A DNA stretch of 64,000 nt from the sequence record PQ249395. One strand, given 5' to 3'. Below are positions 59,083-60,501 of the stretch, one piece after another. The notes under the pieces are model-generated. The model saw only the letters and a program-made list of their open reading frames with translations, was not told the DNA's origin and made no database searches. The DNA comes from Escherichia phage Pu-Krd-SF1. The first letter of the stretch is position 1, and each line of letters opens with the position of its first letter. Both the position numbers and the translations under genes were made by a program.

Positions 59083-60501
59083 ATGGCTTTTACAGTTGAT
59101 ATAACTCCTAAAACACCGACAGGGGTTATTGATGAAACCAAGCAGTTTACTGCTGCACCCAGTGGTCAAACTGAAGGTGGAACTATTACCTATGCTTGGA
59201 GCGTAGATAATGTTCCACAAGATGGAGCTGAAGCAACTTTTAATTACGTATTAAAGGGACCTGCCGGTCAAAAGACTATTAAAGTAGTTGCAACAAATAC
59301 AGTTCCAGAAGCTGAAGCTGAAACAGCAGAAGCTACTACAACTATCACAGTTCAAAATAAGACACAAACGACCACCTTAGCTGTAACTCCTAATAGTCCT
59401 CCAGAAGGAGTAATCGGAACAGCCGTTGAATTTACTGCTGCCTTAGCTTCACAGCCATCGGGCGCATCTGCTACGTATCAATGGTACGTTGACGGTTCTC
59501 CTGTGGGCGAAGCAACTTCTGCTACATTCAATTACACTCCTTCCACAAGCGGAGTTAAAACAATTAAGTGTGTAGCTCAAGTAACCGCGACAGATTATGA
59601 TGCAAAGGAAGTTACTTCCAATGAAGTATCATTAACGGTTAATAAAAAGACGCAGACAACTACCTTGGCAGTAACTCCTGATAGTCCTGCTGCTGGAGTA
59701 ATTGGAACCCCAATTCAATTTACTGCTGCCTTAGCTTCTCAACCTGATGGAGCGTCTGCTACGTATCAGTGGTATGTAGATGATTCACAAGTTGGTGGAG
59801 AAACTAACTCTACATTTAGCTATACTCCAACTACAAGTGGAGTAAAAAGAATTAAATGCGTAGCCCAAGTAACTGCAGAAAATTATAATGAAAAGGAAGT
59901 TACTTCTAATGAAGTATCATTGACAGTTAATAAGAAGACAATGAATCCACAGGTTACATTGACTCCTCCTTCTATTAATGTTCAGCAAGATGCTTCGGCT
60001 ACATTTACTGCTAACGTTACGGATGCTCCGGAAGAAGCGCAAATTACGTATTCATGGAAGAAAGATTCTTCTCCTGTAGAAGGGTCAACTAATGTATACA
60101 CCGTTGATACATCATCTGTTGGAAGTCAAACTATTGAAGTTACTGCAACTGTTACTGCCACTGATTATGATAGCAAAACTATTACAGCAGAAGGCCAAGT
60201 TCAGGTAACTGATAAAGTTGCTCCGGAACCAGAAGGTGAATTACCTTATGTTCATCCTCTTCCACATCGTAGCTCAGCTTATATCTGGTGCGGTTGGTGG
60301 GTTATGGATGAAATCCAAAAAATGACTGAAGAAGGTAAAGATTGGAAAACTGAAGATCCAGATAGTAAATACTACCTGCATCGTTACACTCTTCAGAAGA
60401 TGATGAAAGACTATCCAGAAGTTGATGTTCAAGAATCGCGCAATGGATACATCATTCATAAAACTGCTTTAGAAACTGGTATCATCTATACCTATCCATA
60501 A
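59083..60501 (+). CDS. hoc: highly immunogenic outer capsid protein Hoc (472 aa, four Ig-like domains)
   Basis: Matches recalled T4 Hoc N- and C-terminal sequence; contains an extra ~96-aa Ig-like repeat. Confidence 0.85.
   Translation: MAFTVDITPKTPTGVIDETKQFTAAPSGQTEGGTITYAWSVDNVPQDGAEATFNYVLKGPAGQKTIKVVATNTVPEAEAETAEATTTITVQNKTQTTTLAVTPNSPPEGVIGTAVEFTAALASQPSGASATYQWYVDGSPVGEATSATFNYTPSTSGVKTIKCVAQVTATDYDAKEVTSNEVSLTVNKKTQTTTLAVTPDSPAAGVIGTPIQFTAALASQPDGASATYQWYVDDSQVGGETNSTFSYTPTTSGVKRIKCVAQVTAENYNEKEVTSNEVSLTVNKKTMNPQVTLTPPSINVQQDASATFTANVTDAPEEAQITYSWKKDSSPVEGSTNVYTVDTSSVGSQTIEVTATVTATDYDSKTITAEGQVQVTDKVAPEPEGELPYVHPLPHRSSAYIWCGWWVMDEIQKMTEEGKDWKTEDPDSKYYLHRYTLQKMMKDYPEVDVQESRNGYIIHKTALETGIIYTYP
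59356..59928 (+). repeat. tandem in-frame duplication of a ~288-nt Ig-like domain module within hoc
   Basis: Units 59356..59640 and 59641..59928 encode ~80% identical 95/96-aa segments (NKxTQTTTLAVTP...EVSLTV). Confidence 0.8.

Follow-up and report, generated by a model that had tools for sequence, protein, structure and literature searches.

Old domain-2 cassettes, probably re-assorted by recombination, in the four-Ig Hoc of Escherichia phage Pu-Krd-SF1

The hoc gene of Escherichia phage Pu-Krd-SF1 lies near the end of a stretch of 64,000 nucleotides (nt) of sequence record PQ249395, which is referred to below as the window. The source of the window is a Tequatrovirus (T4-like phage), and its hoc is a common four-Ig allele, that is, an allele whose product has four immunoglobulin (Ig)-like domains where that of T4 has three. 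We give a probability of about 85% to the following explanation: domain 2 (D2) is present in this allele as two old paralogous cassettes of 96 amino acids (aa), D2 cassettes of several types circulate among related phages and are re-assorted in one to three copies, the likely cause being recombination, and the fibre formed by the protein would be longer than that of T4. The gene and the domains of its product are as follows.

59083..60501, + strand: hoc, 472 codons plus stop, from the list of open reading frames (ORFs); outer capsid (head decoration) protein, highly immunogenic; expected mass of about 50.7 kDa
59083..59358, + strand: Ig-like domain 1 (D1), aa 1-92; aligns with T4 Hoc 1-92; predicted beta-sandwich at 1-91, with a predicted local distance difference test score (pLDDT) of about 84-94
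59359..59646, + strand: Ig-like domain 2a (D2a), aa 93-188; sequence type 3, repeat copy 1; predicted beta-sandwich at 94-187; absent from T4
59647..59934, + strand: Ig-like domain 2b (D2b), aa 189-284; sequence type 4, repeat copy 2; counterpart of T4 domain 2
59935..60216, + strand: Ig-like domain 3 (D3), aa 285-378; aligns with T4 Hoc 189-282; predicted beta-sandwich at 290-376
60217..60498, + strand: C-terminal capsid-binding domain, aa 379-472; aligns with T4 Hoc 283-376

The window protein matches the T4 Hoc chains of the PDB in phmmer (5vf3_Z and others, E = 8e-222), and it is the product of the same gene at the same locus. T4 Hoc has 376 aa (PDB 5vf3, 8t1x, 8t9r, 9mkb, 9mof; GenBank X14869, 'hoc protein (AA 1-376)') and consists of three Ig-like domains plus a C-terminal domain (PMC10385173). 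T4 residues 1-106 align with window residues 1-106, and T4 93-376 with window 189-472: D1, D2b, D3 and the C-terminal domain correspond end to end, and what the window protein has beyond T4 Hoc is exactly one 96-aa D2 unit, D2a, which lies between D1 and the T4-like D2. The C-terminal domain differs from T4 Hoc 283-376 by one E/D substitution in the phmmer alignment. Both proteins are acidic; the isoelectric point computed for the window Hoc is 4.51, with values of 4.1-5.1 for the individual domains, in the range of about 4-5 that is expected of Hoc proteins, which are generally acidic (PMC10385173).

An AlphaFold2 model of the window Hoc, built on an alignment of 30 four-Ig homologues, has a mean pLDDT of 83. 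It contains four beta-sandwich blocks (1-91, 94-187, 190-283 and 290-376), mostly at pLDDT 85-95, and Foldseek ranks four-Ig fragments highest among its PDB matches (Sidekick-2 Ig1-4, Dscam1 Ig1-4 and ICAM-5 D1-D4). Pfam PKD and Ig-family matches span residues about 120-373: Ig_2 and BiPBP_C fall within D2a, PKD covers 195-267 in D2b (the unit to which T4 93-188 is aligned), and Ig_3 and I-set cover 289-373 in D3. The N-terminal part of the protein is predicted to be a string of four Ig-like domains. The C-terminal domain is modelled as an alpha/beta fold with low confidence (pLDDT 35-66), and its assignment is therefore based on its sequence identity to the T4 domain, whose structure has been solved on the capsid (5vf3, 8t1x, 8t9r; PMC10385173).

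A first-pass annotation of the window had proposed a 472-aa Hoc made of four Ig-like domains and a capsid-binding C-terminus, against 376 aa and three Ig-like domains in T4, and had ascribed the difference to two adjacent units of about 288 nt, coding for Ig-like segments about 80% identical. The ORF, the T4 alignment and the model bear out this architecture, the T4 values are correct, the units measure 288 nt each with 77-79% protein identity, and the limits proposed for the pair (59356-59928, aa 92-282) lie about 10 nt or less from the boundaries set by the tools. On the contrary, the DNA of the repeats, which had been called near-identical, is only 77% so, with 67 differences over 288 positions and exact runs of at most 22 nt.

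The repeat search finds tandem, gap-free 288-nt copies at 59347-59634 and 59635-59922 (spacing 288, 77% identity), and Tandem Repeats Finder reports 59347-59940 with a period of 288, 2.1 copies, 77% matches and a score of 722. When the copies are recounted, 221/288 nt are identical, in frame with hoc, and the differences are distributed 13/11/43 over codon positions 1/2/3. At the protein level, the register of the repeat finder gives 74/96 identical residues, and pairing by domain (aa 93-188 with 189-284) gives 76/96 (79%). In comparison, D2a and D2b are 37-42% identical to D1 and D3, and Ig-like units other than the pair are 30-42% identical in all pairings. The kinship of D2a and D2b is therefore distinct from the general similarity of Ig domains and much closer.

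The divergence of the two copies shows that they are old. D2a and D2b are 77.4% identical in nt, and the Nei-Gojobori method gives a synonymous divergence (dS) of 1.08 and a ratio of nonsynonymous to synonymous divergence (dN/dS) of 0.11 for the pair, while dS is 0.19-0.42 for the orthologous hoc segments of the window and T4; this is why we regard the two units as an old paralogue pair rather than a recent duplicate. D2a is 95.1% identical in nt to the sole D2 of a 376-aa Hoc (locus L003) and 99% identical in aa to P0110, also a 376-aa Hoc; its identity to T4 D2 is 79.5% in nt, and that of D2b to T4 D2 is 91.7%. For reference, the hoc flanks are 90-95% identical in nt among these genomes, and those of the window are 94.9% and 94.9% identical to L003, 91.3% and 91.2% to T4. 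D2a and D2b are therefore paralogues that have long been separate, with no sign of homogenisation and with purifying selection acting on both. The aa differences between them are concentrated in predicted loops (15 of 20; loops 15/42, strands 5/54; Fisher p = 0.002): D2 is a conserved scaffold with variable surfaces.

T4 D2 itself (L005 3001-4131, compared with window 59647-59934) is a mosaic relative to D2b. It is 98-100% identical to D2b at unit positions ~72-230, while its final ~70 nt are about 73% identical to D2b and closer to D2a-type tails, encoding ...TATDYDALSV.... This pattern is consistent with recombination inside the cassette, and it is possibly the trace of an unequal crossover.

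The window hoc matched 677 records of the phage collection in megablast. That 598 of these 'cover at least 80% of the query' is unusable for counting four-Ig genes, because a three-Ig gene, with its single D2, is hit by both repeats of the query and the two alignments are merged. Instead, 60 evenly spaced records of the 677 were classified by how far the match extends in the record and into how many pieces it falls: 20 have one collinear 1419-nt piece, 30 have a gene of about 1131 nt (T4, T2 and RB9 among them), and 10 are longer, D1-divergent, or matched by the C-terminal domain only (RB69, for example). Roughly one in three sequenced relatives thus has the four-Ig form, which is an ordinary and stably inherited allele; the domain that the first-pass annotation had called 'extra' is so relative to T4, but not relative to the third of the relatives that share it.

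Among the 120 best protein clusters at 90% identity, 81 are 376-378 aa long, 30 are 468-472 aa and 9 are 567-570 aa. A search with the 1713-nt hoc of Escherichia phage UGKSEcP2 (locus L001) retrieves at least 14 records with a collinear gene of 1707-1713 nt, YUEEL01 being present under two accessions. D2 copy numbers of 1, 2 and 3 all exist in nature; arrays of four or more units were found neither in the 120 clusters nor among the best matches to the UGKSEcP2 hoc, in a search that was not exhaustive. The proposal that the repeats are a substrate for expansion and contraction is right insofar as one, two and three D2 units do occur, but there is no evidence of instability.

Three cases illustrate other changes in these genes. 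The record LR597660.1, Escherichia phage T4_ev151, has a collinear five-Ig (1707-nt) hoc, unlike T4. Its name suggests an evolved or recombinant derivative, in which case a hoc allele would have been replaced on a laboratory timescale. P0046 (567 aa, 54% overall identity) combines a T4-like D1, a single D2 unit and the C-terminal domain with three much more divergent Ig units that lie in between, and P0032 (468 aa) has four Ig domains, of which D3 has lost 4 aa by deletion; these two are cases of further modular change in the Ig string.

The 472-aa Hocs of phages Pu-Krd-SF5/6/7, PP01, ime09, HP3, Yersinia phage PST, Shigella phage SHFML-11 and Serratia phage PhiZZ30 are encoded by a collinear 1419-nt gene, 90-98% identical in DNA to that of the window; the four-Ig architecture is common to all and the differences are point differences only. 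The nearest match (98.1%) is in Escherichia phages Pu-Krd-SF5/6/7, where the gene is labelled 'Hoc-like head decoration protein'. Some 472-aa Hocs have the D2 combination 2-4 or 2-1 instead of the 3-4 of the window. The 568-570-aa Hocs of Escherichia phages UGKSEcP1/2, YUEEL01 and EC101 and of Shigella phages ESh16/34/36 have the same flanks and the same 96-aa cassette, in register, but three D2 units, and hence five Ig-like domains, against two D2 units in the window.

To define these D2 types, 167 units (from 120 proteins and the window) were clustered by UPGMA, on representatives of the 90%-identity clusters and with one threshold, and they fall into about four sequence types. Genes with a single D2 have type 4 (52 clusters, T4-like), type 3 (23) or type 1 (5). 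The combinations in genes with two D2 units are 3-4 (16 clusters, the window included), 2-4 (8), 2-1, 2-3 and 4-1; those with three are 2-4-1, 2-3-1, 2-4-3 and 2-4-5. The order is nearly fixed: type 2 is first in 21/21 multi-copy arrays and was not seen on its own among the 120 clusters, type 1 is last in 14/14, and the order 2<3<4<1 is broken only by 2-4-3. The order may point to a longer ancestral form with the array 2-3-4-1, of about 664 aa, which is absent from the matches examined.

The arrays vary on constant backgrounds. One D1 cluster bears eight different D2 arrangements, and among proteins whose D1, D3 and C-terminal parts agree at 280/280 residues, P0102 has one D2 unit, P0040 and P0037 have two and P0007 has three, the types of the units differing. 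Alleles that are identical elsewhere have therefore swapped the array or changed its size. D2 copy number and type re-assort independently of the flanking D1 and D3/C-terminal sequences.

A similar expansion is found in another T-even lineage. The IMG/VR sample of 21 loci, too small for frequencies, exposed in the lineage of phages like IME341, JS10, Bp7 and SP18 a parallel series of hoc lengths, 849, 1134 and 1419 nt (L010, L011, L012, L016). The Hoc of vB_EcoM_IME341 (L010 2501-3919) also has 472 aa and four Ig units, but the pair of units most alike in it is formed by the last two Ig domains, which are D3-like (60% aa identity), and its expansion is thus separate from the D2 duplication of the window.

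More distant Hocs differ in another way. It is established that the number of Ig domains varies, from one or two to ten, with 10 Ig domains in the 1174-aa Hoc of Serratia phage Muldoon (PMC10385173); such variation has been stated in general terms (PMC10385173, PMC11150434), and a two-Ig variant is described (PMC11853027). In the Hocs of RB49 (three Ig domains, crystal structure), Muldoon (10) and PNJ-9 (two), the Ig domains are far more diverged, and the variation is between distant phages, whereas that of the window is a 288-nt cassette polymorphism within one genus. The four-Ig feature is already known, since the gene is 98% identical to deposited, annotated genes and the variable Ig number is published. 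As regards the 288-nt D2 cassette polymorphism within Tequatrovirus, or the 472-aa Hoc, no explicit description was found in the open-access literature (subscription journals were outside the scope of the search); the polymorphism is plain from public records.

The labels of Hoc in public records are inconsistent: 'PKD domain protein', 'capsid and scaffold protein', 'capsid whiskers protein', 'capsid vertex protein' and 'hypothetical protein' are all in use. The Hoc of cluster P0012 is labelled 'endonuclease [Shigella sonnei]', and several records divide Hoc into two features ('x2').

The explanation that we favour can be set out as follows. D2 cassettes would be held in a 288-nt register, with one (T4), two (window) or three of them in each hoc allele. 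D2 type and number would most likely be reshuffled when co-infecting phages recombine homologously, and at times unequally, with crossovers at the conserved ends of the cassettes, which encode ...TSNEVSLTVNKKTQTTTLAVTP.... The capsid-binding domain of T4, nearly identical to that of the window, binds the centre of gp23 hexamers, and one Hoc monomer would accordingly sit at the centre of each gp23 hexamer of the mature capsid. The fibre of T4 Hoc measures 180 A (PMC10385173); the monomeric fibre of the window phage would be longer by the length of about one Ig domain (some 40-45 A) and would reach about 220-225 A. Such a fibre would display a second D2 surface with loops unlike those of the first, D1 would be moved further off the capsid, and the weak binding of Hoc to glycans or cell surfaces may be broadened or strengthened.

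Some points weigh against this explanation. The D2 types are approximate, as the units are themselves mosaic and one threshold was used; the fibre length, the capsid occupancy and the ligand binding of the window Hoc are inferred; a second D2 need not alter adherence, given that published domain mapping is inconsistent. The changes may also have gone in either of two directions: units may have been lost from longer arrays, or they may have been gained when alleles that differ in D2 type crossed over unequally.

The second of these directions leads to the strongest alternative, according to which the T4 form is ancestral, an unequal crossover between three-Ig alleles of type 3 and type 4 made the four-Ig form, and multi-copy arrays are recombinant novelties. 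It departs from the favoured explanation in direction only. We consider it possible, although we would not bet on it. The three-Ig parents that it requires do exist, with type 3 only (23 clusters) and type 4 only (52 clusters), the conserved ends of the cassettes could act as crossover sites, and copy number does differ among alleles with identical flanks. However, the ordering of the types (type 2 always first and never alone, type 1 always last) fits deletions from a longer array at least equally well, and a crossover of this kind predicts a type-4-like 3' flank, yet on both sides the flanks of the window gene resemble those of L003, a single-copy allele of type 3, more closely (94.9% and 94.9%) than they do those of T4 (91.3% and 91.2%).

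It may also be that the additional domain is folded and displayed but has no effect on fitness or adherence, in which case the polymorphism would be a neutral variation of length. Phages can do without Hoc in the laboratory, its contribution to the stability of the capsid is only marginal (PMC10385173), and the three length classes occur side by side in phages of the same hosts. We nevertheless find neutrality unlikely: both copies have been under purifying selection (dN/dS 0.11) after a long divergence, their differences are concentrated in loops, and a separate expansion of Ig domains arrives at the same length in another T-even lineage, which together form the pattern that domains with a maintained function would be expected to show.

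That D2 was duplicated recently in the lineage of this phage, leaving near-identical, unstable repeats prone to rapid further change, was the implicit picture of the first-pass annotation and is now very improbable. The two units do lie side by side in the reading frame, both with a length of exactly 288 nt, and relatives with one to three copies are known. But identity is 77%, dS (about 1.08) is 3-5 times the orthologous synonymous divergence between the window and T4, exact matches do not exceed 22 nt, each copy resembles a unit of some other phage (95% and 92%) far more than it does the adjacent copy, and the collinear 1419-nt gene is present in about a third of the sampled records. Last, short reads can mis-assemble tandem repeats, but an assembly artefact was rejected as having practically no chance of being the explanation, since copies that differ at 67/288 positions allow reads to be placed unambiguously, the frame is intact, and the same architecture is found in many independently sequenced genomes.

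Returning to the favoured explanation, an extended version of it would make D2 a true cassette region, in which ordered, old types are swapped by recombination while selection tunes fibre length, surface specificity or escape from antibodies. We put this forward tentatively, and the odds are rather against it. Were it true, T4 with its three-Ig Hoc would represent just one of the states of the array, and possibly a reduced one.

For display on T4 nanoparticles the standard scaffold is Hoc, which also serves as the model protein for phage adherence to mucus. By analogy with its relatives, the window Hoc may be an adhesin for mucus (of the BAM type, named after bacteriophage adherence to mucus) or for host surfaces. 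In the literature on these relatives (PMC11150434, PMC11853027, PMC9271167), the contact with MUC2 is made by D1 in phage PNJ-6 (E29, G33), and the D3 mutation D246N of T4 Hoc matters for binding; the contact is made by D2 in PNJ-9 (S183, L184, T185; PMC11853027), and domains 2 and 3 of Hoc are implicated for E. coli surfaces (PMC10385173). The S-L-T tripeptide occurs twice in the window Hoc, at 183-185 and 279-281, a match to PNJ-9 by residue numbering only.

As a discovery the four-Ig gene is minor, being present in hundreds of deposited genomes. It is chiefly of value as one member of a series of alleles in which the function of fibre length can be tested: near-isogenic natural alleles exist with three, four and five Ig-like domains, some of them sharing identical flanks, and they are suited to tests of the effect of fibre length or domain-2 content on adherence to mucus or cells, aggregation, immunogenicity and display geometry. 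For annotation, the four-Ig form is to be treated as a normal Hoc variant.

The surroundings of hoc in the window comprise the following features.

56215-57723: UvsW helicase (ORF list and scan)
58393-59073: Inh-sized ORF of 226 aa, upstream neighbour of hoc
59072..59076, + strand: ribosome-binding site AAGGA, 6 nt 5' of the hoc ATG, overlapping the inh stop codon (read from the sequence)
60506..60531, + strand: terminator-like hairpin AGGGGC-TTCG-GCCCCT, then a T-rich tail, 5 nt past the hoc stop (consensus scan)

On the 3' side of hoc, the order is a DUF2774 protein, a 92-aa ORF and a 334-aa ORF (assigned to rnlB, RNA ligase 2, by position). The position of hoc is that of the T4 map, uvsW-(seg)-inh-hoc-24.3-24.2-rnlB, and the same gene order in locus L001 (phage UGKSEcP2) carries the Pfam labels Phage_Inh and RNA_ligase/T4_Rnl2_C. 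A terminator is annotated beside hoc in the record of vB_EcoM_NBG2. The exact T4 late-promoter motif TATAAATA was not found on the + strand upstream of inh or hoc, and a sigma-70 scan around hoc gave nothing meaningful. The sole exact copy of TATAAATA nearby is on the - strand, at 58372-58379, just upstream of a seg-like gene and facing it.

This seg-like gene (57807-58343, - strand), which lies between uvsW and inh, codes for a GIY-YIG homing endonuclease of 178 aa (Pfam SegE_GIY-YIG, E = 1.8e-9). It is matched in 165 phage records, against 677 for hoc, and in 157 of these 165 at 95% identity or more. It is absent from L001, where uvsW abuts inh, and its product has 205 aa in L003. It looks like a mobile element that is either present or absent, and its homing could co-convert the neighbouring hoc region.

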